Source of the DNA: an archaeon
Lineage (GTDB): Archaea; Undinarchaeota; CAZHTU01; JBDRCC01
Assembly: GCA_043822065.1 (NCBI GenBank)
Contig: JBDRCC010000021.1
Location: forward strand, 32,001-96,000
Direction: 5' to 3'
DNA: 64,000 nt
Shown here piece after piece: positions 5,006 to 45,842 of this stretch; within the stretch, counting starts at the first letter, position 1, and every line of letters starts with the position of its first letter. The notes under the pieces are model-generated. The model saw only the letters and a program-made list of their open reading frames with translations. It was not told where the DNA came from and did no database searches. Made by a program: the position numbers and the translations under genes.

Positions 5006-5101
5006 GCCTTCAGCTGCCGGTACAGCTCAGTCCCGACCTTTCTTTAGAAAAGAAAGCTCGACCAAAGAAATTACTGCTTCAGCTGCCGGTACAGCTCTGT
5101 C
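5002..5101. mobile_element. 38-bp three-arm repeat element (5033-5070) flanked by 31-bp direct repeats
   Basis: 5002-5032 and 5071-5101 are 27/31 identical. Insert is CCGACCTTTCTTTAGAAAAGAAAGCTCGACCAAAGAAA. Confidence 0.75.
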
Positions 5102-5820
5102 TTGAACCCGCCCAGCAGCACCCTGAAATACGCATAAATTACCCCGAACAGGGCAAACCCTACAACCATATTCGGCAGGTAGGGGTACGTAATCCAGACG
5201 CTCCCAAAAGCAAGCTCGTATACCACAACGCTTGGCACAAGGGCTATCGCAGGAATAGCCGCCGCAAAAATAGCGAGAAGCATCAGGACGTTATAGGCCA
5301 TCCAGTCCCAGAATATCTTCGCCTTCTGCCCTTTGAACTGCATGTAAGAGTCTATGACTATGTCGGCGTAGTCCTTCTTTATCAGCGCGCCGTGCTGGTA
5401 GGAGAAGAATAGCGGCACCCCCACAAACAGCCACAGCATTCCACCATACGTCGGAATGAATGTTATGAATACAAAATACCCAACCGCCAGGCTCAGCGTC
5501 ACAGCCGTGAACGTCGGGTAATGCGCCCTGAACCCGTCCCAGCTCTTTCGGAGGCTTTCCGCCCTCCCGCCGAAATACTGGTTCGCATTCCTGATTATGA
5601 CTCCCTCCAGTGCGATGTATGCCAGCACTGCCGCAGCCCCGCATGCCATAAAAACCAGCCCGGCCGCCACCGACGCTTCCATAGACGCCACTGCCCTCGA
5701 AATGAACAGGAGCCCTCCAAGCGCGAAAAAAGAAAGCGTGAACAATACGGCGTACGGCGCCATCCTCTCCCGGCTGTGGGCGTATGTCACCGCCCGCCTT
5801 ATCGCAGTCCTGTACCTCAT
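5071..5820 (-). CDS. multi-pass membrane protein
   Basis: About six hydrophobic segments. ATG at 5820 (MRYRTAIRR) has a TATA-like sequence about 25 nt upstream. Confidence 0.7.
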   Translation of the reverse strand: MRYRTAIRRAVTYAHSRERMAPYAVLFTLSFFALGGLLFISRAVASMEASVAAGLVFMACGAAAVLAYIALEGVIIRNANQYFGGRAESLRKSWDGFRAHYPTFTAVTLSLAVGYFVFITFIPTYGGMLWLFVGVPLFFSYQHGALIKKDYADIVIDSYMQFKGQKAKIFWDWMAYNVLMLLAIFAAAIPAIALVPSVVVYELAFGSVWITYPYLPNMVVGFALFGVIYAYFRVLLGGFKTELYRQLKQ

Positions 5821-5858
5821 TATGCTAATTGAATCTAAAAACTCATATTTAAAGCCAG

Positions 5859-6404
5859 CTAAGCTAGCACCAGCATGACGTACGGCGCAAACGAGCGGAA
5901 CATCACGAAATTCCAGACGATGTGCGTCAGCACGAACTTGGCGCAGCCTGCCGGGCTGTGCCCGGTGAAAACGTACACCCCGCATATCACCACATCATAA
6001 ATTACAGTCACCAGGACCCCGAGCGCAAGGATGCCCCCCACATTCAGCATCCCTGCCAGGAACCCTGCGAGCAGGAACCCGAAAACGCCTATCAGCACGT
6101 CGTCAGGCCTCTCCCTTGTGAAAAACCATGACAGCGCCATCGCAGCAGCGCCAACAAGGCCGCCAAGCATCGCGCCCTCCGACACAGCGGTGCAGACTGT
6201 AAAAAGCATTATCATTTCTATCCCGATGTCCCCGCCTGCGAACCTCTGCGGGACCCTGCTCAGCGCCCCGATCGCTACCATCAGCAGCAGCGCCCCCCCG
6301 AACTTCAGCTGGGCGCCGAACGTGTAGAACAGAAAGGCGATGAGCAAGGCTGCCGTCCCGGCTACCGCCCCAATGACCACCAGCGGCCGTTCTAGTATCC
6401 CCAT
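5859..6404 (-). CDS. membrane protein, ECF transporter S-component-like
   Basis: 181 aa, highly hydrophobic; IGIEMIMLFTVCTAVSEGAMLGGLVG pattern. Confidence 0.55.
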   Translation of the reverse strand: MGILERPLVVIGAVAGTAALLIAFLFYTFGAQLKFGGALLLMVAIGALSRVPQRFAGGDIGIEMIMLFTVCTAVSEGAMLGGLVGAAAMALSWFFTRERPDDVLIGVFGFLLAGFLAGMLNVGGILALGVLVTVIYDVVICGVYVFTGHSPAGCAKFVLTHIVWNFVMFRSFAPYVMLVLA

Positions 6405-6539
6405 TTTAGCCTTTATATATTTCAGAACTCACCGGATTTATATGGTTGGCGAAAAAGGCGTATTCCAGGATGGGATTTGCAGGGCTGGCAATCCTGCCAG
6501 CGAAAGCCTGCGCCGCTCCGCCACCCCTTTTGGAACAAA

Positions 6540-8219
6540 ATGATAGGTCTAAACGAGGCAGCCTGCGACTCATGCGGAATCTGCGCAATGGCGTGCCAGC
6601 GGCACGGCATCCAGCTTGCCGGATTCCCAAACCTCTGCCGCCACTGCGAGGACCCGCCCTGCCTCGGCTGCGGCGCCATGCGGCTGGAGGGCGCTGTGGT
6701 TGTCATCGACCAGAGCATGTGCGGCGGCTGCGGCGAGTGCGCCAAGCGCTGCCCCTACGGCGCAATAACCCTAACCAAAGGAAAGGCGTGGAAGTGCGAC
6801 CTCTGCTACCCGGAGCTCAAGCCGAAGTGCATCCCAGCCTGCCCAGAGAACGCCCTGTACGTCATTTCCGCCGAAAGGGAAAGCCCGCTCGGCTGGGGCT
6901 TCCAGCCGCTCTCGGATTCCTTCATAAGAAAAACCCTCGAGCGCACTGACAAAGACGCAGTCTTCATTGACACAAAGGGCGACATCCGCTATTTCTACAC
7001 TGGCTTGTCCGAGCTGACCCAGCAGGAGGAGGGGGTATTCCGGGCGGTCTCTTCGCTTTTCAAGGAGCTCGCAAGGCGCGAGATGCTCTCGCCCCCGCTG
7101 TCAGGCGAAAACCCACTCGCCGCCAGAAAGGAAATCCGCACCAAGGTCTCCACCCTCCTCGCAGACCACCTCGTGCGGCACTCCAAGCCATTCCCTCCTG
7201 AAAGGAGCGAGAACCTAGCCGAGATAATCACTTCCTCCGTCGGAGGCAACCTCGGCCCGCTGGACTTCCTACTGTACAACGACAGGTTTGAGGAAGTGAC
7301 ATTAAACGGCATCGGCGAGAAGCTCTTCGCCAAGCACAAGGAATACGGAAGAATCGAGACGAATTTTTTCTTCAGGAGCGCGGAATACGCAAAGGAGAAC
7401 ATCGTCAACCGGATAGCCGACTTCGTCGGGGAGCCAAACCTTTCTGAAAAGAACCCAATCCTCCCGGCGACCCTCCCTAACGGCGACAGGCTCCACGCCC
7501 TGCTGTACCCCGTCGTCGGCTCCATAGCATTTACAATCCGCCACTTCCCGAAGAAAAACCTCACCCTCGAAGACCTGATAGCCTCCGGCACAATCTCCAA
7601 AGGCGCAGCCGAATACCTAAAAAAAATCATGGAGTCTGGCAAGACAGTCTTCTTCGTCGGCGCCACCGGCACAGGAAAGACAACCCTGCTCAACGCCCTC
7701 CTGAAATACGTCCCGCCGGACAGGCGCATCCTCTCCCTGGAAGAGGTCAGGGAGATACACCCCCCGCACAAGGACTTCCTCCACCACCAGGCAAGGAAGT
7801 CGCAGGGAATCGGCATGCAGCAGCTGATTGAGTCGAGCCTCAGGGAGACGCCGGACCGCGTCGTCATCGGCGAGGTCAGGACAGAGGCGGAAATCCGCGC
7901 CTTCCTCTCCCTAGCCCAGGCTGGCCCGGGCGAGGCTTCGTATGCCACGTTTCACGGCGAGACGCTCGAGACCGCAATCCGGAGGCTGAAACACTACGGC
8001 ATCTCCGAAGTCGACCTGCCTGGTGCCATACACCTTCTAGTCCTCCTCACGCGCAGGCATGAGTACGACAGGAAGCTGAACAAAAGCCGGACTGCCCGCT
8101 ACGTCGCGGAAATCGCAGAGCTCAAAGACGACGCGTCCCTCAACAAAATCTTTGTTTTCAAGGCCAGGGCAAAACGGCTCGAGAGGACCAAGAGCAAATC
8201 AATTCTGCTCGACCAGTAA
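6540..8219 (+). CDS. 4x[4Fe-4S] ferredoxin domain fused to a CpaF/VirB11 (type II/IV secretion) ATPase
   Basis: Cys motifs CDSCGICAMAC, CRHCEDPPCLGC, CGGCGECAKRCP and KCDLC..PKCIPACP. Walker A GATGTGKTT, Asp box LSLEEVREI, Walker B PDRVVIGEVR, His box ATFHG. Confidence 0.88.
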   Translation: MIGLNEAACDSCGICAMACQRHGIQLAGFPNLCRHCEDPPCLGCGAMRLEGAVVVIDQSMCGGCGECAKRCPYGAITLTKGKAWKCDLCYPELKPKCIPACPENALYVISAERESPLGWGFQPLSDSFIRKTLERTDKDAVFIDTKGDIRYFYTGLSELTQQEEGVFRAVSSLFKELARREMLSPPLSGENPLAARKEIRTKVSTLLADHLVRHSKPFPPERSENLAEIITSSVGGNLGPLDFLLYNDRFEEVTLNGIGEKLFAKHKEYGRIETNFFFRSAEYAKENIVNRIADFVGEPNLSEKNPILPATLPNGDRLHALLYPVVGSIAFTIRHFPKKNLTLEDLIASGTISKGAAEYLKKIMESGKTVFFVGATGTGKTTLLNALLKYVPPDRRILSLEEVREIHPPHKDFLHHQARKSQGIGMQQLIESSLRETPDRVVIGEVRTEAEIRAFLSLAQAGPGEASYATFHGETLETAIRRLKHYGISEVDLPGAIHLLVLLTRRHEYDRKLNKSRTARYVAEIAELKDDASLNKIFVFKARAKRLERTKSKSILLDQ

Positions 8220-8258
8220 CAATAAAAAATCACCCCCCCTATACTTCTTGGGGGTAAA

Positions 8259-9590
8259 ATGGCAATTCATCCAATCGAGTTTAGGTATGGAAGGCCGGAG
8301 ATGAAAAACGTCTGGTCCGACGAGTCCCGCCTGAAAAAGGTCCTTGAGGTCGAGGTTGCGCTCGCATACGCGCACTCCAAGGCCGGAAACATCTCAAAAT
8401 CTGATTTTCTGAAAATCCAAGCCGGCGCAAAGAAGGTCAGGCTTGACCGCGTCAACAAGATCGAGGCGGAAATCAACCACGACATGATGGCGGTCGTCAG
8501 GGCGCTCTCCGAGCAGTGCGGCTCGGCTGGGAAGTACGTCCACCTCGGCGCGACATCAAACGACATATTCGACACTGCGACATCCCTCCAGTTCAAGGAG
8601 GCAGCCAGAATCCTCCGATCCGACCTTGTCTCGCTCAAAACGACCCTTGCCACCCTTGCCGGCAGGACGAAAAACCTCGTCTGCATCGGCAGGACGCACG
8701 GGCAGCACGCAGTCCCGACTACATATGGGCTCCGCTTCGCAATCTGGGCGCTTGAAGTCCACAGGCACCTCCAGCGACTCGACGAGCTGACACCAAGGCT
8801 TCTCGTCGGGCAGATGAACGGCGCAGTCGGCACTGGCGCGGCGTTCGGCTCAAAAGCCGCAAGGATACAGGACACCGCAGTCAGGCGCCTCGGCCTCAAG
8901 CCGGTCACGGCGTCAAACCAGGTCATCCAGCGCGACCGCCACGCAGAGTTCCTGCTCTTCATGTCCCTTGCCGCGGAGACGCTCAACAAGATAGGCGTCA
9001 ACATCCGCACCTGGCAGAGGACTGAAATCGGCGAGGTATTCGAGCAGTTCGACACCAAGAAGCAGGTCGGCAGCTCGACCATGCCGCACAAGCGGAACCC
9101 GATACACTTCGAGCGCATCTGCGGCCTCTCGAGAATCATAACCGCAAACGCATTCGCCCAGCTGAGGAACATCGCACTCTGGGACGAGCGCGACCTGACA
9201 AACTCCTCTCCCGAGAGGATAACATTCCTCGAGTCGACAATACTCCTTGACTACATCCTCGGGCTGTCCATCTGCGGGCTGTCCTCCCTTGGGTTCGACA
9301 GGAAGCGGATTGAGCAGAACCTCAACATGACGAATGGGCTTGTCATGGCAGAGCGCGTAATGATTGCCCTGGCTGAAAACGGCATGCCGCGCCAGGAGGC
9401 GCACGAGCTCGTCCGGAAGCTCTCGATGAAGTGCTACTCCTCAGGCGAGCCGCTTGCCAGCCTGCTGAAATCAGACAGAAAAATATCTTCAATCCTTTCC
9501 CCGAAGAAAATCGATTTGCTGATGGACCCGCACACCTACATCGGCAATGCAGTCCAGACCGTCGAGAAGGCGCTCAAAGAGGTGCGCTGA
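8259..9590 (+). CDS. purB: adenylosuccinate lyase
   Basis: HLGATSND, GRTHGQHA and GSSTMPHKRNP signature. Confidence 0.97.
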   Translation: MAIHPIEFRYGRPEMKNVWSDESRLKKVLEVEVALAYAHSKAGNISKSDFLKIQAGAKKVRLDRVNKIEAEINHDMMAVVRALSEQCGSAGKYVHLGATSNDIFDTATSLQFKEAARILRSDLVSLKTTLATLAGRTKNLVCIGRTHGQHAVPTTYGLRFAIWALEVHRHLQRLDELTPRLLVGQMNGAVGTGAAFGSKAARIQDTAVRRLGLKPVTASNQVIQRDRHAEFLLFMSLAAETLNKIGVNIRTWQRTEIGEVFEQFDTKKQVGSSTMPHKRNPIHFERICGLSRIITANAFAQLRNIALWDERDLTNSSPERITFLESTILLDYILGLSICGLSSLGFDRKRIEQNLNMTNGLVMAERVMIALAENGMPRQEAHELVRKLSMKCYSSGEPLASLLKSDRKISSILSPKKIDLLMDPHTYIGNAVQTVEKALKEVR

Positions 9591-10588
9591 TGGACTACCG
9601 CCAGGCAGGAGTAGACATCAAAAAGGAAAACGCCTCAATCTCTACGATGGTCTCGGCCCTGCAGAAGACCTTTGCAGAGCGCAAGGGAAAGCTCGGGGAG
9701 GTCATCGACCTCGGAGACTACTTCGCTAACCTAATTGACATCGGGAACGGCAAGGCGCTTGCAATGTCAACCGACGGAGCCGGCTCCAAGGTGATAATTG
9801 CCGAGCTGCTTGACGACTACACCACAGTCGGGATAGACATGGTCGCGATGAACGTCAACGACATCATCTGCACCGGCGCCGAACCGATTGCACTCGTCGA
9901 CTACTACGCAGTCGAGGAGATAAATGAAAGGCGCTCGCTTGAAATCGCCCAGGGCGTCGCCAGGGGCTCAATCGAGGCAGGCGTCGCCGTCATCGGCGGC
10001 GAGACTGCAAGCCTCCCGGACACAATCAAGGGCGCAAAGCCGAAGACGGGCTTCGACATCGCCGGGACCGCCATCGGAATCGTCGACAAGGACAAGATAA
10101 TCGACGGCAAGAAGGTCAAGCCAGGGGACGCAATCCTCGGGCTCGCGTCATCCGGCATACACTCAAACGGGCTGACACTTGCACGGAAGGTCCTCGACCT
10201 CTCGGACAAAAAAACCCTCCGGGAGCTCCTGACCCCGACGAGGATTTACGTCAAGCCAATACTCAAGCTCCTCAAGTCCTGCGAGGTCCACGGCCTTGCC
10301 CACATCACGGGTGGCGGGCTGAACAAGATACGCAGGCTCAACAAGAACTACGGCGTAGACATACCAAGCCCGCGCAAGCCGCAGAAGATATTCCAGGAAA
10401 TCCAGAAAAAGGCAGGCATCTCTGAAGCTGAGATGTACCGGACGTTCAACATGGGGACCGGCTTCGCAGTTGTGCTCCCTGAGTCAGAGGTCGCATCAGC
10501 GAAAAAGCTTCTCTCCGCCCTTGACCCGATGGTCATCGGCTCTGTAATCAGGGAAAAGGCAATCTACCTGCGGGGCGAGAAGGCATAA
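9590..10588 (+). CDS. purM: phosphoribosylformylglycinamidine cyclo-ligase (AIR synthetase)
   Basis: MDYRQAGVDI, STDGAGSK, GGETA, SSGIHSNG, HITGGG and TFNMGTG. ATG overlaps the purB stop. Confidence 0.96.
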   Translation: MDYRQAGVDIKKENASISTMVSALQKTFAERKGKLGEVIDLGDYFANLIDIGNGKALAMSTDGAGSKVIIAELLDDYTTVGIDMVAMNVNDIICTGAEPIALVDYYAVEEINERRSLEIAQGVARGSIEAGVAVIGGETASLPDTIKGAKPKTGFDIAGTAIGIVDKDKIIDGKKVKPGDAILGLASSGIHSNGLTLARKVLDLSDKKTLRELLTPTRIYVKPILKLLKSCEVHGLAHITGGGLNKIRRLNKNYGVDIPSPRKPQKIFQEIQKKAGISEAEMYRTFNMGTGFAVVLPESEVASAKKLLSALDPMVIGSVIREKAIYLRGEKA

Positions 10589-11682: not shown

Positions 11683-11712
11683 CTTTTTAAATACTAAAAT
11701 CAAAGTCCTATT

Positions 11713-12435: not shown

Positions 12436-12849
12436 TCACGGATAAATAGTTACTATGTCCCCGTCCTTCACGTCAAGGGCTGCCCTGAGGTTTATCGGCC
12501 CGAGTATCTCGATTACCTCGTCGTCCTCCCTCTGCCTGTCGGGGAATATGACTGCGCACCTGGTCGTCTGCGCCTCGCCGTGCTCCAGGGTGGATATCCG
12601 CACGCACTTCGCCCCGCCGTAGTCGTCCACCATGTCCTTCTTGCGGGTGTTAACCTTCATGAAGCCCTCGAGCCGCTCTCCTGTCAGCGTCCTAAGGTGC
12701 TCCCTTACCGTAGGGGTGACCTGGAGGCAAAGCGTCCCTGAAAAAGGGGTGTAGCCAAGGATGCGCTTGAACTGCTTGGTATACTCCGTCATGGAGACAA
12801 AAGCTGCGCCTTCCCCCGCCCCACTTCTAACTATGCCTGAGAAGCTCAT
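12436..12849 (-). CDS. ribK: CTP-dependent riboflavin kinase
   Basis: GIVRSGAGEGAAF, GYTPFSGTL and EILGPINLRAALDVKDGD. Confidence 0.9.
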   Translation of the reverse strand: MSFSGIVRSGAGEGAAFVSMTEYTKQFKRILGYTPFSGTLCLQVTPTVREHLRTLTGERLEGFMKVNTRKKDMVDDYGGAKCVRISTLEHGEAQTTRCAVIFPDRQREDDEVIEILGPINLRAALDVKDGDIVTIYP

Positions 12850-12856
12850 CTAAGCG

Positions 12857-13171: not shown

Positions 13172-13214
13172 ATCAACCGCTACTCATTAAATCCAACTAG
13201 TATATAAATTATTC

Positions 13215-17981: not shown

Positions 17982-18413
17982 ATGATAACCATAATAATCG
18001 GCTCCGAGTCAGACAGGCCAGTTGCCGAGAAAGCTGAAAAAATACTCTCCGAATTCGGCGTCCCATTCCAGACCCACGTCGCATCCGCCCACCGGACCCC
18101 GGACAGGCTCAAGGAAATCGTCACATCATCCAAATCCGACGTCTTCATAGCAATTGCCGGCTTATCCGCAGCCCTGCCTGGTGCGGTCGCCTCAATGACA
18201 GTAAAGCCTGTCATCGGCGTCCCGGTTAACGTCAAGCTTGGCGGGCTTGACGCCCTTCTCGCGATAATGCAGATGCCGCCAAAGGTCCCGGTCGCCGCCG
18301 TCGGGGTGGACAGGGCGGACAATGCAGCCTACCTGGCGGTTCAGATTCTATCGCTCAAGGACAAGGCCCTTGCAAAAAAGTTTGCAGACTTCAGGCAGTC
18401 GCTTTCTAAATAA
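17982..18413 (+). CDS. purE: N5-CAIR mutase / AIR carboxylase
   Basis: [21 protein letters not shown] and PVIGVP. Confidence 0.96.
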
Positions 18414-18508
18414 TAAACTTAAGCAGCAGCTTCCCAAGCGACCTTTCTTGAAAGAAAGCTCGACCAAAGAACGCCTAAATAATAAACTTAAACAGCAGCT
18501 TCCCAAGC
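18406..18508. mobile_element. 35-bp three-arm repeat element (18440-18474) flanked by 34-bp direct repeats
   Basis: 18406-18439 and 18475-18508 are 33/34 identical. Insert GACCTTTCTTGAAAGAAAGCTCGACCAAAGAACGC is nearly identical to the 5033 element. Confidence 0.78.
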
Positions 18509-19665
18509 TTCGGGCTCTTCTTTATCAGCGTCTTAACCGCCGCGGTCTTTCCATCCATCATGTCCAGCACCGTCTTTGTGTCAAAGACAGTAGCCAATTG
18601 GTCAATCTCCGCGTCGTTCAGCGAGGCGGCTATCTTCTGGAGCCTTAAGTGCCTCTTGAATGTCTTTCCATATGCGCTGTCCCATAACGCCTTGTACTCG
18701 TCAAGCCGCGTCTTCGAAACGTCCCCCTTTTCGAGCGCTTTGGCTCCGACTTCAGCCGCTATGCTCCCAGCGCCCATTGCAAACGCTATCCCGCCGCCGT
18801 GTATCGGGCTTACCTGCCTTGCCGCGTCACCGACAACCACTAGGCCATCGGTCGCAAACTCCTTTGACACGCCTCCGACCGGTATCCCCCCTCCATTTAC
18901 CTCCACTATCGAGCCATCTCCGTACCCGTGCTGCTTTACCCACCTGTCAAGGTAGTACTTTGCATTTTTTTCAGAGGCAGCGTTTATCCCTATGCCCACG
19001 TTGGCGACGTCCTTTCCCTTTGGGAAGACCCAGATGTACCCGCTCGGCGCGATGCTGTTCCCAATGTAGAACTCAAGGACCTCGTGGTCCTGGATATCTA
19101 TCCCTGCCATCTCGTACTGGAACCCGGAATCAAAAGTTTCAAGCTTTTCAGCTGTGTCTATCCCTGCCCACCTTGCGACCTTGGAGTCCACGCCGTCTGC
19201 CGCGACAGTCAGCCTCGCCCTGACTTCAAATTCCTCGCCGAAGCGGTCGCAGTTTATGCCCTCGATGCCGTTCTTTCCCTTCAGGACCCCGGTGCACCTG
19301 ACCTTTGCCTGGACTTCAGCGCCAGCCCTCGCAGCCTCTATGGCAAGGTACTTGTCAAACATCTTCCGCTCAAGCAGGTAGCCGCACAGCGCGTCGTCGG
19401 TCTTGTCCTTTAGCGTGAGCCTTGTCCCGTTCGGGCTGATGAGCGACATGCCGTATATGTTGTTCGCGATGTGGTTCCCCTTCTCTGGTATGCCGAACCT
19501 CTTGAAGTGGGCCTTCGCAAGGCCTTCGCCGCACCTCACCGGCGCACCTATCTCCTCGCGCTTGTCAATGCATAATACCGATAGCCCCTTCTCTGCAAGC
19601 TTCTTCGCGGCGTATGTGCCGCCTGGGCCTGCGCCAACGACTGCAACATCGTACTCATCCTTCAT
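18475..19665 (-). CDS. digeranylgeranylglycerophospholipid (geranylgeranyl) reductase
   Basis: VVGAGPGG, PVRCGEG, ADGVDS, GYIWVFPKG and GDAARQVSPIHGGGI. Confidence 0.93.
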   Translation of the reverse strand: MKDEYDVAVVGAGPGGTYAAKKLAEKGLSVLCIDKREEIGAPVRCGEGLAKAHFKRFGIPEKGNHIANNIYGMSLISPNGTRLTLKDKTDDALCGYLLERKMFDKYLAIEAARAGAEVQAKVRCTGVLKGKNGIEGINCDRFGEEFEVRARLTVAADGVDSKVARWAGIDTAEKLETFDSGFQYEMAGIDIQDHEVLEFYIGNSIAPSGYIWVFPKGKDVANVGIGINAASEKNAKYYLDRWVKQHGYGDGSIVEVNGGGIPVGGVSKEFATDGLVVVGDAARQVSPIHGGGIAFAMGAGSIAAEVGAKALEKGDVSKTRLDEYKALWDSAYGKTFKRHLRLQKIAASLNDAEIDQLATVFDTKTVLDMMDGKTAAVKTLIKKSPKLGKLLFKFII

Positions 19666-21409: not shown

Positions 21410-21450
21410 GCTTAACATACGGATTAGGGGTTAAAATAATTTGCCCACAG

Positions 21451-21570
21451 CCTTTTTCTTTTAGAAAAAGAACCGCAAGGAACAAAGTTCCTTGGAGCCC
21501 CGAAAAGCCTTGCTTTTCGAGGAAACGCTGGCGAAAAAGAAAACTACCTCAGGGTTCGCTCCGCTCACGC
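21451..21570. repeat. three-arm repeat element with nested 50-bp double-hairpin insert and TCGCTCCGCTC tail
   Basis: Closely matches the 26513 copy once 21473-21522 is removed. Confidence 0.75.
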
Positions 21571-21583: not shown

Positions 21584-22234
21584 TTAGAACCACTCGCCAA
21601 GCCTGCTCTGGCACTTCTCCTCGTTCAGCCGCCAGGCAGTGTACCAGGACTTCCTCACTATCTCCGGGTACTCCTTATTTTTCCTTATCCAGTCCTGGAG
21701 GAACTTTATCGTAACCTCGTCCGAGGGGTATCCGCTCCCGATTTCCCCGTACTTCTTCTTCAGCTTCTCAATCTCCCTGTCCCTCTCGACCTTTGCCAGA
21801 ATCGACGCCGCCGCGACAACCGGGAACCTTTCCCCCCTGTTGTGCGAGTGTATTATCATCGGGTCCTTGAGGTACTTCCGTATCCTATTTGCAAAAACGA
21901 TCGGCGGCCGGTCCGGGGAGTCGACGTAAACCTTGTCCGGCCCGAGCTTCCTTATCAGCCCGCCTATGAACTCCGCCTCCATCTCGTTAAGCGAGGCGTC
22001 GTCGCGGTACCTGTCGATGTACTTTGGCTGTATCCTCTCCACCCTGTAGGTGTGCGCAATCTTTTTTATCTCCTTCCGGAGGGAAGCCCTTTTTTCCGGC
22101 GTGAGCAGCTTCGAGTCCTTGACCCCTATCTCCTTCAGCCGCTTCTCCCCTGCCTCGTCAACCACAAGGCAGCAAATCGTCATAGGCCCGATGACTGGCC
22201 CGCGGCCGGCTTCATCCACTCCTGCAATGAGCAT
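21584..22234 (-). CDS. rnhB: ribonuclease HII
   Basis: GVDEAGRGPVIGP, VKDSK, VAAASILAK, GSGYPSD and C-terminal PIP box QSRLGEWF. Confidence 0.96.
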   Translation of the reverse strand: MLIAGVDEAGRGPVIGPMTICCLVVDEAGEKRLKEIGVKDSKLLTPEKRASLRKEIKKIAHTYRVERIQPKYIDRYRDDASLNEMEAEFIGGLIRKLGPDKVYVDSPDRPPIVFANRIRKYLKDPMIIHSHNRGERFPVVAAASILAKVERDREIEKLKKKYGEIGSGYPSDEVTIKFLQDWIRKNKEYPEIVRKSWYTAWRLNEEKCQSRLGEWF

Positions 22235-22327
22235 ACTCCTTCTTTGTTGCCCTGGATTTAAACTATTTGCGCAACCAAAACCTTTTATAAGCTGAACCAA
22301 GTACTATGATTACTGTGCATTTCCGAT

Positions 22328-23980: not shown

Positions 23981-24059
23981 GCATATACTAAGCATTTTGT
24001 TATTTAAATCTGTAGTGATTTGAAAAAACATTAAATACTCTACAAACAAAATACATCCT

Positions 24060-24580
24060 ATGTCAAAAACTCCCCCTGCCAATTGGCGATCCCGTCTCGT
24101 TAAACTTGATGCAGATGAAATAGTAGACTATTTAATAGCAGAACAAGAACAACAACTTAAGGAGAAAAGCCATCTGATGAGACTGAAGTTGTTTTTAAAG
24201 AAATTAAAAAACTCCTTAAAATATGCGAGAGTTTTGGAGTGGAAGGAGATACAGCTGAGCACGCGATACAGGACTTTTTAACTGTCTGTGGAAAAGACTA
24301 TCTCTCTCCAGAGAATAGGGCTGAAATGCAAAAAATTGAGGATGAGGTGACTATTATCGGAAGGCTCAGAACGAAGAAAGACACGTATATCTATGTACTA
24401 AAATTCATCAAGAAATTTGATGAACCTGTTAGTTTTAAGATGCTAAATCTTGCGCCAAAATCTTATCTGAAAGATAAATATAAACCTTTTATACTAGACC
24501 TTGAAAGATTTAATATAATCCAAATAGATAGAAGCAAAGGCGAACGCAATTACCTCTATTCATTAAATACGCTTGGCTAA
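24060..24580 (+). pseudogene. AT-rich winged-helix-like gene split by a single-base frameshift near 24165-24168
   Basis: The second frame is open and protein-like from 24161 (KPSDETEVVFKEIKKLLKICESFGVEGD...). Adding one A to GAGAAAAGCC joins both ORFs. Confidence 0.6.
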
Positions 24581-26216: not shown

Positions 26217-26241
26217 ATACTTCCCAGCCCAAATTACCCTT

Positions 26242-26508
26242 GGTGGCTAGGCGGGGAGATAGTCGTACCCTTTACGCGAAATCGACTTCAGCGCGGCCGA
26301 ATGCCCTTTTGAGGCGGATAGGCTTTCTAATCTAGCCGTTTCCAAGCGTCGAAGCCCTGCCCTCAGGGGTGGTGCATCTGGACGAACCGGGCCAGGCGGG
26401 GAACCGTGCAACCCTAATCCTTATGTATTACGCTCTGCGGATCACGGGGTGGAGTTTGGATCGGTATTGGATTAGTTTGCACTAGCGTCGATTAAGGGTG
26501 CCACCACC
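26242..26508 (+). ncRNA. archaeal signal recognition particle RNA
   Basis: Terminal helix GGTGG/CCACC, Alu-like 5' end GGCTAGGCGGGG...CGAAA and helix 8 GGGCCAGGCGGGGAACCGTGCAACCC. Confidence 0.88.
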
Positions 26509-26512
26509 TCAA

Positions 26513-26557
26513 CCTTTTTCTTTTTAAAAAAGAAAAACGTTGGCGAAAAAGAAAACT
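26513..26557. repeat. three-arm repeat element
   Basis: CCTTTTTCTTTTT-AAAAAAGAAAAA-CGTTGGCG-AAAAAGAAAACT directly after the SRP RNA. Confidence 0.7.
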
Positions 26558-32972: not shown

Positions 32973-32973
32973 G

Positions 32974-36765: not shown

Positions 36766-37137
36766 ATGTTTTGGGACTTTGTCGGAGTAACCGCCGCGGC
36801 TCTGGTTTCTGCCAGCTTCCTCGCCCAGATACACAAGGGATGGAAAACGAAAAAGATGGATGACGTTTCCGGCTGGATGTTCCTGATAATCCTCGCCGGC
36901 ATGCTCCTATGGCTCCTGTACGGCATCCACATACAAGATAACATAATCATCGGTGCGAACGCCGTCGGATGCAGTTTGCAGGCGGTAATCCTCCTTATGA
37001 AACGCCAGCTCCAGACCCGAAACCCAGCCTTTTCTTTTGGAAGAAAGGCTCTGGATCACCCAAAAGAAACCAATAGTCTTTGCCTCTACCGAAATATAAA
37101 AACTCAAGGCCTTCGAGCCAGGCTACAAGCAGATTAA
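36766..37137 (+). CDS. SemiSWEET/PQ-loop family transporter with C-terminal extension through a repeat element
   Basis: FLAQIHKGWKTKKMDDVS, LWLLYG and IIGAN. Confidence 0.8.
   Translation: MFWDFVGVTAAALVSASFLAQIHKGWKTKKMDDVSGWMFLIILAGMLLWLLYGIHIQDNIIIGANAVGCSLQAVILLMKRQLQTRNPAFSFGRKALDHPKETNSLCLYRNIKTQGLRARLQAD
37026..37071. repeat. three-arm repeat element (degenerate)
   Basis: AGCCTTTTCTTTT-GG-AAGAAAGGCT...CCCAAAAGAAAC. Confidence 0.6.
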
Positions 37138-39076: not shown

Positions 39077-39159
39077 CCAATAACCTTTTAATTCTGGCGA
39101 CCAATATCCCTCCAAACTCTCTTAAACCCATTAAAACTTCCTTAATCCCCCGGGTTTAT

Positions 39160-42100
39160 ATGGCAAGCCAAAAATTCGACCCAATAAAAATCGAGGAGGA
39201 AGTCCTCACGTACTGGAAGGAGAAGGACCTATCCGCCCTCCTAAAGAAGAAATACGAGGGCAAGAAGAAGTACTATTTCCTCGACGGCCCGCCCTACATG
39301 AACATGCCCCCGCACGTCGGGCACGCAAGGACGAGGGCAATCCGCGACCTGATTCTCAAATACAAGCGAATGAACGGCTACGACGTCCGCCTCCAGGCGG
39401 GGCACGACTGCCACGGCCTGCCCATAGAGGTCAAGGTTGAGGAGGAGATAGGCTCAAGGACGAAGGACGACATTGAGGCGTACGGCATTGACAAGTTCCT
39501 GGCTAAGTGCAGGGAGCGCGCAGAGCGCTTCGTCTCGGTTTGGTCTGACTTCTACGAGAGGTTTGGCCTCCACCTGTGGTTCGACAACCCGTACATGACC
39601 ATGGACAACAAGTTCATCGAGTCCTCCTGGCACTTCTTCAAGCAGGCGGAGAAGAAGAAGCTCCTCTACAAGGGCTCAAGGATAGTCGAGTGGTGCCCGC
39701 GGTGCGAGACCCCGCTCTCGAACTACGAGGCTGCTGACAACTACAAGGACGTCAGCGACATTTCGGTATACGTCCGCTTCCCAGTCTCCGGAAAAAAGAA
39801 CGAGCACCTTTTGATTTGGACAACCACCCCCTGGACCCTTCCCGCAAACATGTGCGTTGCGGTCAACCCGAAATTCACCTACGCCCGCGTCAAGCACGGT
39901 GGCGAGATACTCATAATGGCGAAGGAGCTCGCCCCGGCGGTCATGAAAGCCTGTGGCATTGAGCAGTACGCCATCCTCGACGAGTTCAAGGGCGAGAAGC
40001 TCCTTGGAACGAAATACGTCCACCCCCTCCGTGATGAGGTCCCAATCCAGAAGGACTTCAGGGACAAGAACATCCACTCGGTCGTCTTCGCAGACTACGT
40101 CACCCTCGAGGACGGAACCGGCTGCGTCCACACCGCACCAGGGCACGGGACTGACGACTACAACACTGGCGTTAAGTACAAGATATCCCTCTTCAGCCCG
40201 GTCGACGAGAAGGGCAGGATGACTAAAGAGGGCGGGAAATATGCAGGTGAGTACGTCAAGGACGCAAACCGGCTGGTAATACACGACCTCAACCAGAAAA
40301 AGCTCCTGCTGAAGGAAAGCGCTATCGAGCACCGCTACGCCCACTGCTGGAGGTGCGGGACGCCGATAGTCACAAGGGCTTCTGCCCAGTGGTTCATCGC
40401 AGTCGAGAAAATCAGGGACAAGCTCATCAGGGAGAACAAGAAGGTCCAGTGGGTCCCTGCATGGGCTGGGGAAAAGAGGTTCCACAACTGGCTTGAGGGC
40501 GCGCGCGACTGGTGCATCTCAAGGCAGAGGTACTGGGGCATACCCCTTCCGATATGGCAGTGCGGGTGCGGGAAATACGAGGTGCTCGGCTCCCTGGAAG
40601 AGATACGGAAGAAGGCAAAATTCGAAGGCAGCCCTGACCTGCACAAGCCCTTCATGGACTCGCTCAAATGGAAATGCTCATGCGGCAAGGAGATGAGGCG
40701 CGTCCCGGACATCGCCGACGTCTGGTTTGACTCCGGCTCCACCACCTGGACAACCCTGAACTACCCGCAAAACCCGAAGGAGTTCGAGCGCTGGTTCCCA
40801 GTGGACTTCATCACCGAGGGGCTCGACCAGACGCGCGGCTGGTTCTACACACTCATGGTCGAAAGCGTCGTCTGCTTCGACAAGGCGCCCTACAAGACGG
40901 TCCTGATGAACGACTTCGTCCAGGACAAGGACGGGAACAAGATGTCCAAGTCGGTCGGCAACGTCGTCGACCCCTACGACGTCATGAAGAAGCACGGTGC
41001 CGACATCCTTCGCTTCTACCTGATAAGCGAGACCCAGCCCTGGGACCAGCTCAAGTTCAACTGGGACAACGTCCTGATAACATACAAGATGGCTAACATC
41101 CTCTGGAACTCCTACCGCTTCTCCAAGACCTACATGGACCTCGCCTCCTTCGACCCGATGCAGAAGCCGGGAGCGTCAGCCGAGGACAAATGGCTCGTCT
41201 CAAGGACGAACAGCCTCGTGCAGGAAGTCACGGAGTGCTTCGAGAACTTCGACCTATTTACGGCGTCACGCAAGCTTTCCACTTTCATATCTGACGACCT
41301 CAGCCGGTGGTACATTAAGCTCATACGCAACAGGACAGACGACCCGGCGGCGCTGGCTACCCTGTACTACGCAATAACGCGCCTTACCCGCATGCTCGCC
41401 CCGTTCATGCCATTCATCTCCGAGGCAATCTACCGCGACCTTGAGGGCGGCGCCTCAGTCCACGCCGAGCCCTGGCCCGCCACGGACAAGAAGGCGATAA
41501 ACAGGAAGCTCGAGGACTCGATGGAAAGCGCAAAGCAGGTCTTTGAGGCGGTCTCAAGGGCGCGCCAGCGCGCCGGGATAAAGCTGAAGTACCCGCTCAG
41601 GACGCTCTACGCCCCGAAGGCGCTCGAGCCTGTTGCCTCAGTCCTCAAGAGCCAGTGCAACGTCAAGGAAGTCGCATTCAAGACCCCCGATGTTTCAATC
41701 CGGTGCAAGCCGCTGTTTGCGAAACTGGGCCCCAAGTTCGGGCTTAATGCAAAGGACGCAGTTGACAGGATATCCAAAGCTGACCCGGTTGCCCTCCGGA
41801 AGCAGCTGAAGAAGGGCGCCGTCAAGCTCGGCAAGTACGAGATACTCCCTGAATACGTCGAGTTCGAGGATGCCATGCCCAAGGGCATTGTCGCTGAGGA
41901 GACTGCCGCCGGCAGGGTCTACCTTGACATAGCCCAGGACAAGGAGCTCCTCGAGGAGAGCCTGGTCAGAGAGGTTATCAGAAACATTCAAGAACTAAGG
42001 AAGCTTAACAATTACATGGTTGGGGAGCGCATACTTCTCGAGGTCGAGACCGACAAGGATGCCGAGGAAATTCTGAAAAAATACGACACCCAGCTCACGG

Positions 42101-42204
42101 ACGGCGTTTCTGCAAGCCAGGTGAAGTTCGTGAAGCTGGCAAGGACGCTTGGCGAAATAGGGTATGGCGAAACGAAGGTGCGCATAAACTTCAGGAGGCA
42201 ATAA
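39160..42204 (+). CDS. ileS: isoleucyl-tRNA synthetase
   Basis: DGPPY, HVGH, WTTTPWT, GTGCVHTAPGHG, DWCISRQRYWG, DQTRGWF and KMSKS. Confidence 0.97.
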   Translation: MASQKFDPIKIEEEVLTYWKEKDLSALLKKKYEGKKKYYFLDGPPYMNMPPHVGHARTRAIRDLILKYKRMNGYDVRLQAGHDCHGLPIEVKVEEEIGSRTKDDIEAYGIDKFLAKCRERAERFVSVWSDFYERFGLHLWFDNPYMTMDNKFIESSWHFFKQAEKKKLLYKGSRIVEWCPRCETPLSNYEAADNYKDVSDISVYVRFPVSGKKNEHLLIWTTTPWTLPANMCVAVNPKFTYARVKHGGEILIMAKELAPAVMKACGIEQYAILDEFKGEKLLGTKYVHPLRDEVPIQKDFRDKNIHSVVFADYVTLEDGTGCVHTAPGHGTDDYNTGVKYKISLFSPVDEKGRMTKEGGKYAGEYVKDANRLVIHDLNQKKLLLKESAIEHRYAHCWRCGTPIVTRASAQWFIAVEKIRDKLIRENKKVQWVPAWAGEKRFHNWLEGARDWCISRQRYWGIPLPIWQCGCGKYEVLGSLEEIRKKAKFEGSPDLHKPFMDSLKWKCSCGKEMRRVPDIADVWFDSGSTTWTTLNYPQNPKEFERWFPVDFITEGLDQTRGWFYTLMVESVVCFDKAPYKTVLMNDFVQDKDGNKMSKSVGNVVDPYDVMKKHGADILRFYLISETQPWDQLKFNWDNVLITYKMANILWNSYRFSKTYMDLASFDPMQKPGASAEDKWLVSRTNSLVQEVTECFENFDLFTASRKLSTFISDDLSRWYIKLIRNRTDDPAALATLYYAITRLTRMLAPFMPFISEAIYRDLEGGASVHAEPWPATDKKAINRKLEDSMESAKQVFEAVSRARQRAGIKLKYPLRTLYAPKALEPVASVLKSQCNVKEVAFKTPDVSIRCKPLFAKLGPKFGLNAKDAVDRISKADPVALRKQLKKGAVKLGKYEILPEYVEFEDAMPKGIVAEETAAGRVYLDIAQDKELLEESLVREVIRNIQELRKLNNYMVGERILLEVETDKDAEEILKKYDTQLTDGVSASQVKFVKLARTLGEIGYGETKVRINFRRQ

Positions 42205-43655
42205 TGTACTCAAAAAAGCTGGACAATGCTGAACACGGCTTCTCTTTCTCTGACGCACTCCTTCTGCCGGAGGAATCCTCCATAGAGCCTACGCAGGTCA
42301 ACGTCTCGTCAGTTTTCTCCAAGGGCATACCGCTGAACCTCCCGGTCATCGCGGCTGCGATGGACACGGTCTCAGAGAAGCAGATGGCGGTGACAATGTC
42401 CCGCCTCGGCGGCTTAGCCGTAATACACCGCAACATGGGCCGCGAGGAGCAGGCAAGGCAGGTGCAGGAGGTCAAGGACGCCAGCTTCATCAAGTTCTCA
42501 GTGCTCTCATGCTCACCAGACTCAACAGTCCAGCAGACCAGAAAGACCATGGAGGATAACAATGTCTCCGGCCTCCCAGTGCTTGAGGGCGACAAGGTCG
42601 CAGGGATAATCACCTACACCGACATACGATTCGCCGACAGCGAGAAGGGCAAGGTGCGGGACTACATGACAAAGGACCTCATCACCGTCCCGCTCGACAT
42701 CCAGATGGACGAGGCGCTCAAGATAATGATGAAGAACAAGATTTCGCGCCTCCCGGTGCTCAAGGACAACAAGCTCATTGGAATAATCACGGAGGGGGAC
42801 ATCCGCAGGGAGCAGGGGCATAAAAACGCCCTGCGCGACAAGACCGGAAGCCTGCGAGCGGTTGCCGCGGTCGGGCCGTTTGACATAGAGCGCGCCAGGA
42901 TGCTCGACAAGGCAGGCGCGGACGCGATAGTCATCGACACGGCGCACGGGCACAACATGAACGTCGTCAACGGCGCAAAGAAGATAATCAAGGAAGTCAG
43001 CTGCGACGTCGTGGTCGGGAACATAGCCACTTCCAAGGCGGCGGAGGCGCTAATCTCAGCAGGCGCTGACGCAGTCAAAGTCGGCATAGGCCCTGGAAGC
43101 ATCTGCACCACGAGGATAATCGCAGGCGTCGGGGTCCCGCAGCTGTCTGCCATCGCAGCAGTCGCAGACGTCGCCCACGAGCACAAAGTCCCGGTAATCG
43201 CGGACGGCGGGATAGTCTACTCCGGCGACATAGCCAAGGCGATAGCCGCAGGCGCGGACTGCGTCATGATAGGAAACCTCCTCGCCGGCACGGACGAGGC
43301 GCCGGGAAGGCTCACAATCGTAGAGGGGCGGAAATACAAGCAGTACCGCGGGATGGGCTCGCTCGGCGCGATGGCAACCTCCGCAGACAGGTACTTCCAG
43401 GACGGGGTCGCGAAGGCAAAGACGGTCCCGGAAGGAATAGAGGGGCTTGTCCCGTACAAGGGCCCGGTAGCGGATGTACTCCACCAGCTTGTCGGCGGGC
43501 TCAGGGCGGCGATGGGATATGTCGGCGCAAAGAGCGTGCCGGAGCTTAAGAAAAAGGCAAGGTTCATCCGCATGACTCCGGCCGGGGTGCAGGAGTCCCA
43601 CCCCCACGATGTCCTTATAACCGACGAGGCGCCCAACTACTACAAAATAAGATAA
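42204..43655 (+). CDS. guaB: IMP dehydrogenase
   Basis: AMDTV, a CBS pair, GIGPGSICTTR, ADGG and YRGMGS. Confidence 0.97.
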   Translation: MYSKKLDNAEHGFSFSDALLLPEESSIEPTQVNVSSVFSKGIPLNLPVIAAAMDTVSEKQMAVTMSRLGGLAVIHRNMGREEQARQVQEVKDASFIKFSVLSCSPDSTVQQTRKTMEDNNVSGLPVLEGDKVAGIITYTDIRFADSEKGKVRDYMTKDLITVPLDIQMDEALKIMMKNKISRLPVLKDNKLIGIITEGDIRREQGHKNALRDKTGSLRAVAAVGPFDIERARMLDKAGADAIVIDTAHGHNMNVVNGAKKIIKEVSCDVVVGNIATSKAAEALISAGADAVKVGIGPGSICTTRIIAGVGVPQLSAIAAVADVAHEHKVPVIADGGIVYSGDIAKAIAAGADCVMIGNLLAGTDEAPGRLTIVEGRKYKQYRGMGSLGAMATSADRYFQDGVAKAKTVPEGIEGLVPYKGPVADVLHQLVGGLRAAMGYVGAKSVPELKKKARFIRMTPAGVQESHPHDVLITDEAPNYYKIR

Positions 43656-43686
43656 TTTTTTATAGCCCCGGCGATTATGGTAAACC

Positions 43687-44337
43687 ATGTACATTATACT
43701 TGCCGGAGGGGGCAAGCTCGGCGAGTCCCTGGCAGCAATCCTTGTAAAGAAGAAGCACGACGTAGTTGTCATTGAGATGCTGAAGCCCAGAGCCGAAGGC
43801 CTTGCCGAGCGGCTTGACGCACTTGTGCTCGAAGGCGACGCGACCAACCTTGAACTCCTTATGCACGCCGGGATAGAAAAGGCGGATGCCGTAATCGCCA
43901 TGATGGGCGCCGACACGAAAAACCTCATGGTCTGCGAGCTTGCAAAAAAGAAGAAGGTAAAGAAGATACTCACCCGGCTGAACGAGTCGTCCAACATGCA
44001 GGTCTTCGTCGGGGTTGCCGACACCATAATCGACCTGTCAAGCGTCACGGTCTCAGCATTCCTGAACGCAATCACAGTCACGAGCGAATACGTCATGGAC
44101 ACCCTCTGCGAGGGGAAGGTCCAGCTCGTCCAGGTGCCGATAGCCGCCGGCTCAAAGATGATTGGCAAGACGCCCTCAAAAATCGAAATCCCTGAAATAC
44201 ACATGAGCATCCTCATTGAGCGCGGGGGCGAGACGATATTCAACCCGTCCGAGACGGAGCTCCGGGAGGGCGACATGCTGTACGTGCTTGCGAAGTCGGA
44301 GGCTGTCGAGAACTTTGTCAAGAAGATAAAGAAGTAA
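43687..44337 (+). CDS. trkA: Trk potassium uptake NAD-binding subunit
   Basis: GGGKLG and GDAT; RCK-N plus RCK-C. Confidence 0.92.
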   Translation: MYIILAGGGKLGESLAAILVKKKHDVVVIEMLKPRAEGLAERLDALVLEGDATNLELLMHAGIEKADAVIAMMGADTKNLMVCELAKKKKVKKILTRLNESSNMQVFVGVADTIIDLSSVTVSAFLNAITVTSEYVMDTLCEGKVQLVQVPIAAGSKMIGKTPSKIEIPEIHMSILIERGGETIFNPSETELREGDMLYVLAKSEAVENFVKKIKK

Positions 44338-44338
44338 C

Positions 44339-45763
44339 ATGCGCAGCGTACTATACTATACCGGGCTGTCCCTTTCCATTCTCGGTCTTCTCCTTTTCGT
44401 CCCGGCTGCGGCGGCTTATTTACTATCCGAGCCGGTGGCGCCATTCCTCATAGCCTCTGCCGCAAGCATCATCCCCGGGCTGATCCTCCTTAAACTCGGC
44501 CGCAGGTCTGACCTCTCCCTAGGGCGGGCGTTCATCTTTGCGACTGCCATCTTCCTGCTTATGGCCCTTGTCGGCTCAATCCCCTTCCTCCTTTCAGAGG
44601 GATTCACAGGCGGGCTGCTCGACGCATACTTTGAGTCAATGTCCGGTTTCACCACAACCGGGCTGAGCCTGATAACAAACGTTGAAGCCCTGCCGGGAAG
44701 CCTTCTCATCTGGCGGAGCTTCACCCAGTGGATTGGCGGGATAGGCATCGTCGTCCTCTTCCTTTCCCTCCTTGTCCAGCCTGGAATCTCCTCCTACTAC
44801 CTTTCCAAGGTCGAGGGAAAAGACCAGCGCATCTGGCCTTCAATCGTCAAGACAAGCAGGGAGCAGTTCGGGATATACCTCCTCTATACCGCCCTTGGCG
44901 CAGGCGCCTTCATGCTCATAGGCCTCTCCGCTAAGGACTCCATAATCCATGTCTTTTCCTCCGTCAGCACGGGCGGCTTCTCCTCATACAACTTCAGCGT
45001 CGAGGCGCTTGAGGCGCTCGGCAACCCATACCTCGTCGACATGGTAGTCATAATACTCATGGTCGCGGGCTCGACCTCTTTCCTCCTCCATTCCAAGCTC
45101 CTCCGCGGCGATTACAAGAGGTTCATCAAGAACAGCGAGGTCAGGCTGTTCTACATCATAATCCTCCTGGCATCCGCCATCCTCGCATACGACCAGTACC
45201 TTGCGGGGCAGAGCCACTTCATCAAGAACGCGGTCTTCCAGTCGTTCTCAGCCCTTACCACAACCGGCTTCGTGAACATAGACATTGCATCCATGTCAAC
45301 CCTCGGGCAGTACATACTGGTGGTTCTCATGGTCCTCGGAGGCTCTTCCGGCTCGACATCAGGCGGAATAAAGATGATTCGGCTCCTGATATTCATCAAG
45401 TCGCTCTCCTACGCCCTGAAAAAGGCGATACTCCCGCCCGAGTCGGTCATCCCGTTCAAGATAGGCGACAACTCATTCGAGCAGCCGGCGGTCCTCGTCC
45501 TCGTCGGCTATTCTCTCCTCTACCTAATCCTCCTGGGGCTTGGCACGCTTGTGATAGTCGCGGACGGGTTCACATTCATGGAGTCCCTGTTCGAGTCGAC
45601 ATCCGCCCTCGGCACGGTCGGCCTGACGCTTGGAATCACAGCAAAGCTCGGCACTGCGAGCAAGATAGTGGTCATCCTTGAGATGCTCCTTGGCAGGCTT
45701 GAAATCCTCCCAGTGTTCGGCACCCTGCTCATGCTCACAAAATACGGAAGATTCTCCGAATAG
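44339..45763 (+). CDS. trkH: Trk potassium uptake membrane subunit
   Basis: FESMSGFTTTG, STGGFS, TTTGF, GSTSGGIK and LGTVG. Confidence 0.95.
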   Translation: MRSVLYYTGLSLSILGLLLFVPAAAAYLLSEPVAPFLIASAASIIPGLILLKLGRRSDLSLGRAFIFATAIFLLMALVGSIPFLLSEGFTGGLLDAYFESMSGFTTTGLSLITNVEALPGSLLIWRSFTQWIGGIGIVVLFLSLLVQPGISSYYLSKVEGKDQRIWPSIVKTSREQFGIYLLYTALGAGAFMLIGLSAKDSIIHVFSSVSTGGFSSYNFSVEALEALGNPYLVDMVVIILMVAGSTSFLLHSKLLRGDYKRFIKNSEVRLFYIIILLASAILAYDQYLAGQSHFIKNAVFQSFSALTTTGFVNIDIASMSTLGQYILVVLMVLGGSSGSTSGGIKMIRLLIFIKSLSYALKKAILPPESVIPFKIGDNSFEQPAVLVLVGYSLLYLILLGLGTLVIVADGFTFMESLFESTSALGTVGLTLGITAKLGTASKIVVILEMLLGRLEILPVFGTLLMLTKYGRFSE

Positions 45764-45764
45764 T

Positions 45765-45842
45765 CCGACCCTTTCTTTTTAGAAAAAAGAAATGGTACGC
45801 TATCCAAAGAAAAACTATCTTAGTCCTCGCTCCGCTCGGAGT
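45765..45842. repeat. three-arm repeat element with TCGCTCCGCTC tail
   Basis: CCGACCCTTTCTTTTT-AG-AAAAAAGAAA...CCAAAGAAAAACT...TCC-TCGCTCCGCTC-GGA. Confidence 0.72.

Follow-up and report, generated by a model that had tools for sequence, protein, structure and literature searches.

The stretch of DNA analysed here (the window: 64,000 nucleotides (nt), positions 32001-96000 of contig C21, JBDRCC010000021.1, in the Undinarchaeota genome GCA_043822065.1) carries six copies of a short dispersed repeat built of three arms: a pyrimidine run of the type TnCTm (arm 1), its approximate inverted complement (arm 2) and, after a linker, a purine run of the type AnGAm (arm 3). The run lengths of arm 3 follow those of arm 1 in parallel register, and this covariation is real and is not a Watson-Crick relation. 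Parallel register is the geometry of an intrastrand triplex, and from the covariation alone we infer that such a triplex may form. As an insertion, the element duplicates 17-51 bp of its target, and its orientation tracks the chromosomal strand asymmetry and not the way in which genes are transcribed. It is a real element, and an apparently undescribed A/T-rich archaeal counterpart of the bacterial intrastrand-triplex repeats.

The source genome (G000; 1.03 Mb in 22 contigs, ∼53% G+C, 82% complete, with an archaeal signal recognition particle (SRP) RNA) is the sole member of its family in a phylum of 17 genomes, and has no close relative in which empty sites of the window copies could be sought. 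A genome-wide regular-expression census, to which one long variant on C15 was added, gave 21 curated copies, and a later pattern search found a 22nd on C18, so that the genome holds at least 22. Regular expressions were used instead of a covariance model; a MAFFT alignment of 15 copies misaligned the runs. An earlier note on this DNA had listed six copies, and parsing reproduced all of its sites and run lengths. The number holds for the window, over which the regular expression found no further copy, but not for the genome, and the family reaches well past the source genome.

Arm 1 and arm 3 agree in the first run (n) in all 21 curated copies and in both runs in 17; the four mismatching copies are off by one A in the second run (m). 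The inverted register (m,n), expected of a direct or inverted repeat, fits a single copy of the 21, the symmetric T3CT3 one. When arm 3 was shuffled among the copies in 100,000 trials, a mean of 2.8 and a maximum of 11 exact matches were obtained, and no trial reached 17; hence the arm 1/arm 3 length correlation, for which the earlier note had proposed such a control, holds. To allow for shared descent the copies were collapsed to 10 arm-1 types, of which seven are exact, a value reached by 62 of the 3,628,800 permutations. The three-arm layout itself occurs at 23 sites in the real genome (18 exact), against 0-3 sites, none exact, in each of ten dinucleotide shuffles. The census and the shuffles together uphold the earlier claim of a dispersed three-arm family with parallel-register covariation in an archaeon.

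The core consists of N1N2-ACC, a pyrimidine run, a short loop, a purine run and GCT-N2′N1′, which form a hairpin with a conserved CxC mismatch; it is followed by ACC and by a second purine run that, in parallel register, has an A for each T and a G for each C of the pyrimidine run. Elements are ∼32-125 nt long and non-coding. In the short form the hairpin extends 5 bp past the arms (N1N2-A-C-C paired with G-C-T-N2′N1′); the outer two foot pairs co-vary (CG/CG, CC/GG, GC/GC) while the CxC mismatch is constant. Arm 2, which had been described as the inverted complement of arm 1, is so only roughly, because its first A run merges with the loop. Minimum-free-energy folding of either strand with ViennaRNA forms the arm 1/arm 2 hairpin and leaves arm 3 unpaired in the short copies. 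We also considered a tRNA-minihelix (a hairpin followed by ACCA), and rejected it as leaving the arm matching unexplained.

A second form of the element carries an extra hairpin after arm 3, with the constant loop TCGCTCCGCTC and a stem that co-varies among the sequences. A similar loop, TCGCTTACGCTC, is present in copies of the archaeal genus g34 (L082, L084 and L085), so that a two-hairpin element is common to distant archaea. In the long forms (the window copy at 21453, the C15 copy and one copy in G001, a genome of the same order) an extra two-hairpin module of ∼50 nt lies within arm 2 or the linker. The nested modules of the window copy (21473-21522) and of the C15 copy (∼9150-9230, minus strand) are homologous, and the G001 copy (L037) has a different two-hairpin module in the same spot. 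The nested module may be an optional component, or else another element that has inserted into the first.

The family was then followed in other genomes. G001 has the same element with the same arms. A pattern that fixed only ACCTT...AAGCT-NN-ACCAA, leaving arm 3 free beyond its first two A residues, gave ∼90 matches in 42 of 401 archaeal genomes, compared with ∼25 for the reversed control. Seventy of these matches were retrieved, and 60 of them, from 29 other archaeal genomes, were element-like (foot pairs plus a stem of ≥3 bp). In 57 of the 60, arm 3 opens with the full T-to-A/C-to-G image of the arm-1 pyrimidine tract. The T-run and A-run lengths are equal in 25 of 39 genome/type combinations (shuffle mean 10.6; 0 of 20,000 shuffles reach 25), and the types include T4/A4, T5/A5, T6/A6, T4CT2/A4GA2, T4CT3/A4GA3 and T3C/A3G. 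Where arm 1 runs on into purines (TTTGC, TTTTTGC), the match ends with the pyrimidine tract, as a triplex code predicts. A metagenome scan with arm 1 fixed as T3C and arm 3 wholly free covered at least 117 loci and 109 distinct cores. Among the metagenome matches listed, to which the metagenome counts below also refer, arm 3 starts with AAAG in 90 of the 109 cores and N1N2 pairs with N2′N1′ in 97. The family is present in complete genomes of g34, and only two viral contigs carry the pattern. The strict CC...GG-foot pattern gave no match outside the source genome. A second-hairpin pattern run over the genome contigs gave 16 matches, all bacterial and at chance level, in a scan outside which the records of the source genome possibly lie. 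One T6/A6 copy (L095, G388:C1 ∼152317) interrupts a tRNA gene in the manner of an intron, with the anticodon region on one side and the T-arm on the other.

The mirror relation could be real and yet be read by something other than a triplex: a tract-measuring protein or nuclease, a parallel-stranded duplex, or a guide/cleavage-site relation like that of single-strand transposases. In the widespread form ACC stands ahead of arm 1 as well as of arm 3; this ACC and the CxC mismatch conserved at the foot look like recognition signals, and the left junction is exact, the flanking repeat ending at N1N2ACC in six of nine metagenome cases. A general copying or pairing rule, however, would not halt at the purines of arm 1 as the matching does, and no candidate protein was found in the source genome. 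We regard this explanation as rather unlikely.

Evidence that the element inserts comes from its flanks. Direct repeats of 17-41 nt flank 14 of the 22 copies in the source genome. The left repeat stops at the hairpin foot, 4-7 nt ahead of arm 1, and the right repeat begins 2-37 nt past arm 3 or past the second hairpin. In each of the 12 cases that can be assigned, the arm-3 side carries the functional gene end and the other side the displaced copy. Seven of these cases are 3′ ends of protein genes; among the tRNAs, the cut is in the T-loop at two 3′ ends and in the D-loop at three 5′ ends. Filled and empty sites were found in g34. Locus L081 (G278) has an element of ∼62-66 nt and a second copy, of ∼48 nt, of a gene 3′ end, and six sister species have a single target copy without the element. 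Locus L083 (G297) is likewise filled, and four sister species are empty with a single target copy. The g34 duplications measure 48-51 nt. From the empty sites in the sister species we conclude that the element inserts and duplicates its target. The earlier note had suggested that the repeat might be the recognition signal for its own mobilisation; the insertion side of this suggestion is supported by the target duplications and the empty sister sites.

Several further sites illustrate the same arrangement. At G000:C2 ∼24000-24062 the element now separates two tandem genes that once overlapped: a 24-nt repeat begins with the downstream ATG, and the upstream gene ends at a TGA in the element loop. 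In three g34 species (L082, L084 and L085) the element lies at the same DNA cytosine-methyltransferase-like gene, next to a displaced, still open-reading copy of the last ∼20 codons of that gene. Two tRNA genes of 107 and 125 nt, each adjoining a copy (L047 16-122 on G000:C1 and L052 56-180 on G000:C7), presumably contain long introns; they were found by Rfam and missed by ARAGORN.

The functional end/insert/displaced end layout is also that of integrative elements that enter tRNA or protein genes and bring a surrogate gene end, and the copies might accordingly be att-like scars of larger elements that were later deleted. The displaced ends do resemble alternative functional alleles: in the source genome they differ from the functional ends at 13 synonymous and two non-synonymous codon pairs (counted over six protein-gene-end repeats; three of the 13 are stop-codon swaps, and four junction codons were excluded). 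Against this origin, the same 32-125-nt interior with a defined foot recurs at 22 sites and in many genomes without integrase remnants, and the lone tyrosine recombinase gene (PF00589, on C10) is unlinked to any copy. Furthermore, the filled and empty g34 sites differ only by the 60-70-nt element and the duplication, and no full-length elements bounded by these sequences were seen in related genomes. An origin as such scars is extremely unlikely.

The orientation of the copies was compared with transcription and with replication. On the minus strand the six window copies read U-rich, U-rich, A-rich (Y-Y-R) in parallel register. This order and register fit a pyrimidine-motif RNA triple helix (U.A-U with C+.G-C) that would protect or define the RNA 3′ end of the upstream gene. 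MALAT1 and the PAN expression and nuclear retention element (ENE) are RNA 3′-end stabilisers of eukaryotic and viral transcripts, and the archaeal element shares with them the two U-rich tracts and one A-rich tract, the Y-Y-R order and the C+.G-C interruption within U.A-U stacks. All nine assignable duplicated 3′ ends (seven protein, two tRNA) enter from the arm-3 side, so that Y1-Y2-R would be transcribed. Over the 21 copies, however, entry is evenly divided: 14 copies are read into from the arm-3 side and 14 from the arm-1 side, and tandem arrangements are split 6 versus 6. At the seven copies that no gene enters from the arm-3 side, about a third of the total and among them the one behind the SRP RNA gene, the Y-Y-R strand would not be transcribed by any gene. 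Furthermore, three copies are situated upstream of tRNA genes, and an archaeal polymerase would be expected to terminate in the first T runs without reaching the A-rich arm. Unlike MALAT1 and the PAN ENE, the archaeal element has no orientation bias relative to transcription, and it has a replication-type strand bias and shows signs of insertion as DNA.

This strand bias is marked. The orientation of 20 of the 22 copies agrees with the sign of the local GC skew (p = 1.2e-4), both exceptions being copies at tRNA 5′ ends on C8, and the copies of any one contig are oriented alike (all eight on C21, all three on C7). The skew is strong (∼0.1 in magnitude on most contigs; range ∼0.05-0.15 over C1, C7, C8, C20 and C21, which were profiled) and keeps one sign along four of the five profiled contigs, with a value near zero on C7. 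This is an unusually clear strand asymmetry for a small archaeal genome, and it does not depend on coding-strand bias: on both C1 and C21 plus-strand genes are in excess, and the two contigs have opposite skews. By the usual rule the leading strand is G-rich; under that rule the Y-Y-R strand would be the lagging-strand template, which is exposed in single-stranded form. The absence of a transcription bias, together with the GC-skew bias, favours a DNA-level, replication-linked process over an RNA 3′-end helix. The ENE/MALAT1-like role that the earlier note had raised is therefore not supported as a general one, and we consider it quite improbable.

A simpler view is that the copies are ordinary bidirectional oligo-T terminator hairpins, alike by descent or by convergence, with arm 3 supplying the T run of the opposite strand. 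Twenty of the 21 copies adjoin the 3′ end of a gene, with a sense-strand T run just past the gene end as in oligo-T terminators; many lie between convergent genes and one directly behind the SRP RNA gene, and the T runs face polymerases arriving from either side. A secondary role of these runs as bidirectional terminator or spacer is plausible from their positions. Terminators, however, need neither a run-for-run match between arm 3 and arm 1 nor a conserved ACC/GCT foot and CxC mismatch across phyla. Termination also leaves the flanking gene-end duplications and the empty sister sites unaccounted for, as well as the copies that lie upstream of tRNA genes and one that lies between divergent genes. 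That the copies are terminators and nothing else is very unlikely.

The explanation that we favour, and to which we give somewhat better than even chances, is that the repeat is a small insertion element whose three arms fold in single-stranded DNA, that this fold is recognised by a copying or insertion machinery, and that the copies are kept as terminators or spacers. The arms would fold within the single-stranded DNA of the replication fork, giving a hairpin and a third strand, which on the plus strand would be a purine-motif triplex and on the minus strand one of T.A-T and C+.G-C triads. This fold may be what the machinery recognises. Candidates for the latter are a host enzyme or a template switch, which come into consideration because no transposase was seen. 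The T runs on both strands at gene 3′ ends might serve as spacer and terminator between tightly packed genes, a use that would explain the retention of the copies. A bolder version, which we hold to be doubtful, is that of transposase-free, structure-driven mobile DNA. Here the fold at the fork would lead the replisome, or else a nuclease of the host, to copy the element into folded single-strand loops (the D- and T-loops of tRNAs, and gene-end hairpins), with the adjacent gene end copied anew, and essential genes would thereby survive.

Several observations weigh against the favoured explanation. The triplex fold is a prediction, and DNA arms with 6-7 triads (T2CT3, T3CT3) would have marginal stability at neutral pH. 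The 5-bp stem extension takes up part of the 8-nt linker of the short form, so that ACC alone is left to span five base pairs. In genus g17, with TTTGC stems, arm 3 is just A3-A5, a partial exception. The second run is matched less strictly: among the metagenome cores it agrees in 59 of 90 (shuffle mean 51.2; 52 of 20,000 shuffles reach this value), although arms with m=2 have m3=2 in 5 of 12 cases, versus 0 of 78 for the others. The assignment of the leading strand depends on the general GC-skew rule, which may not be that of this lineage, and flanking repeats were found at only 9 of 101 metagenome copies (0 in the reversed-flank control). The outer edge of the duplications lies 0-4 nt beyond the stop codon in six of seven protein cases of the source genome, and in both g34 cases, and for tRNAs it coincides with the mature tRNA end. 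Neither this edge nor the synonymous excess given above suits a plain staggered-cut insertion, and a fill-in duplication under neutral decay should have fewer differences of the synonymous kind than were seen. The excess could stem from recombination with alleles that lack the element, or from the capture of a foreign allele. In g34, L081 has six synonymous versus one non-synonymous difference plus one in-frame codon indel (read by eye), and L083 has three versus four; an allelic-recombination origin of the duplications is thus supported in the source genome but not at L083.

The features of the window are collected below.

Features of the three-arm element and its flanks in the window (positions numbered from the first nucleotide of the window; ORF, open reading frame)
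Feature	Positions	Strand	Details
Displaced 25-nt copy of the 3′ end of ORF 5071-5985 (-)	5008..5032		1 nt short of the element stem
Copy 1, short form	5034..5070	+	arm 1 T3CT3 5039-5045; arm 3 A3GA3 5064-5070
Copy 1, other parts	stem extension 5034-5038; loop; arm 2 5048-5055; linker 5056-5063	+	
Functional version of the 25-nt repeat	5077..5101		last codons of ORF 5071-5985 (-); one synonymous difference
Displaced 34-nt copy, stop codon included	18406..18439		from the 3′ end of ORF 18475-19665 (-)
Copy 2, short form	18440..18471	+	arm 1 T3CT2 18444-18449; arm 3 A3GA2 18466-18471
Copy 2, other parts	arm 2 18451-18457; linker 18458-18465	+	
Functional 34-nt repeat	18475..18508		authentic 3′ terminus of ORF 18475-19665 (-); a single non-synonymous change separates it from the displaced copy
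Copy 3, long form	21448..21570	+	arm 1 T5CT4 21453-21462; arm 3 A5GA4 21534-21543
Copy 3, other parts	nested two-hairpin module 21473-21522; linker 21526-21533	+	module splits arm 2
Copy 3, second hairpin	21544-21570	+	loop TCGCTCCGCTC
SRP RNA gene	26240..26507	+	3′ end leads directly into arm 1 of copy 4
Copy 4	26510..26555	+	stem extension 26510-26514; arm 1 T5CT5 from 26515; arm 3 A5GA4 to 26555
Copy 5	37025..37069	+	arm 1 T4CT4 from 37030; 15-nt linker; arm 3 A4GA3 to 37069
Copy 6	45767..45841	+	arm 1 T3CT5 from 45772; 13-nt linker; arm 3 A3GA5 to 45814
Copy 6, second hairpin	45815-45841	+	loop TCGCTCCGCTC

The genes that adjoin the copies are ordinary core genes (a geranylgeranyl reductase, RNase HII, TrkH and a deacetylase). 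At copy 1 the new stop codon of the minus-strand ORF sits in the 6 nt that separate the functional repeat from arm 3, and the displaced end shows that the two convergent genes formerly had overlapping stop codons. ORF 18475-19665, whose end is duplicated at copy 2, is geranylgeranyl-reductase-like, and copy 3 lies downstream of the RNase HII ORF 21584-22300 (-). The hairpin of copy 5 is degraded. Copy 6 is flanked by the convergent TrkH-like ORF 44339-45763 (+) and ORF 45896-47365 (-). Past this copy, positions 45845-45895 hold an A-rich stretch, a G+C-rich hairpin and then a run of T residues, a terminator-like arrangement for the convergent ORF.

In searches of the source genome, which is incomplete so that absence is not proven, no gene was found for a Y1 transposase (PF01797), TnpB (PF07282), a reverse transcriptase (PF00078), a DDE (PF01609) or rve (PF00665) transposase, Cas1 (PF01867), DUF559 (PF04480) or an IS110 protein (PF01548). 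Elements derived from IS200/IS605, and REP/REPIN sequences with their RAYT, need a Y1 (HUH) transposase and make no target duplication, and single-strand transposition in these families leads to an orientation bias relative to replication. The archaeal element resembles them in being small, hairpin-based, non-coding and multi-copy, and in its replication-type orientation bias, but differs in its long and variable target duplications and in that no Y1 gene was found in the 82%-complete genome. MITEs (miniature transposable elements with inverted repeats) carry a terminal inverted repeat at either end, make a short target duplication whose length is fixed and have a related, transposase-bearing parent. 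Like them, the archaeal element is short, non-autonomous, intergenic and placed between direct target repeats. Unlike them, it has one internal hairpin, duplications that are anchored at gene ends and no parent element, and no DDE or rve gene was found.

The closest likeness is to the PIT/BoxC/TM(ECO) repeats of bacteria. These are dispersed multi-copy intergenic repeats of the order pyrimidine block-loop-purine block-loop-mirror purine block, which have no assigned protein partner and which, when single-stranded, are proposed to form a DNA triplex within the strand (Holder et al. 2015, PMC4666352). TM(ECO) is G/C-rich (CCCTCNCCC type), has a 3-nt second loop and occurs in Proteobacteria and Cyanobacteria, and the ITxF criteria given there ask for stem lengths of 6-15 nt and for 1-6 nt in each of the two loops (PMC4666352). 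The archaeal element has the same block order, with block 3 a mirror of block 2 (17/21 in the source genome, 57/60 elsewhere). Its stems (6-11 nt) and first loop (0-4 nt) fit the ITxF sizes and its second connector (8-61 nt) does not. The TMECO consensus CCCTCNCCC...GGGNGAGGG is not matched: the archaeal TnCTm/AnGAm arms hold a single C/G in an otherwise A/T-rich run, and their second 'loop' carries the conserved GCT-NN-ACC foot, unlike that of TM(ECO). The archaeal copies have, in addition, their target duplications and strand bias; a search of PMC4666352 for the word 'duplication' found none. No copy in the window matched an Rfam family at the gathering score, nor did six loci with copies at E≤1. 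Full-text literature searches, which covered articles without their supplements, found no description of the archaeal element; within that scope the suggestion of the earlier note that it may be undescribed is supported. What is new here is the cross-phylum core, the covariation in metagenomes, the empty sites in sister species and the strand bias.

Bacterial intrastrand-triplex repeats have been known for decades and, to our knowledge, no function has been assigned to them. The same three-block logic is now seen in archaea with a strong covariation, the type of evidence that is usually taken to prove that a fold matters, and the archaeal element links the fold to observable events, namely insertion, target duplication and strand bias. 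The complete g34 genomes, with their filled and empty sites, make the formation and action of a triplex in cells directly testable. For the annotation of small archaeal genomes, duplicated tRNA or gene ends beside such an element could be mistaken for att sites or pseudogenes. If the structure-driven mobile DNA considered above were real, it would be a new mode of DNA movement in minimal archaeal genomes and the first intrastrand triplex with a defined biological role.

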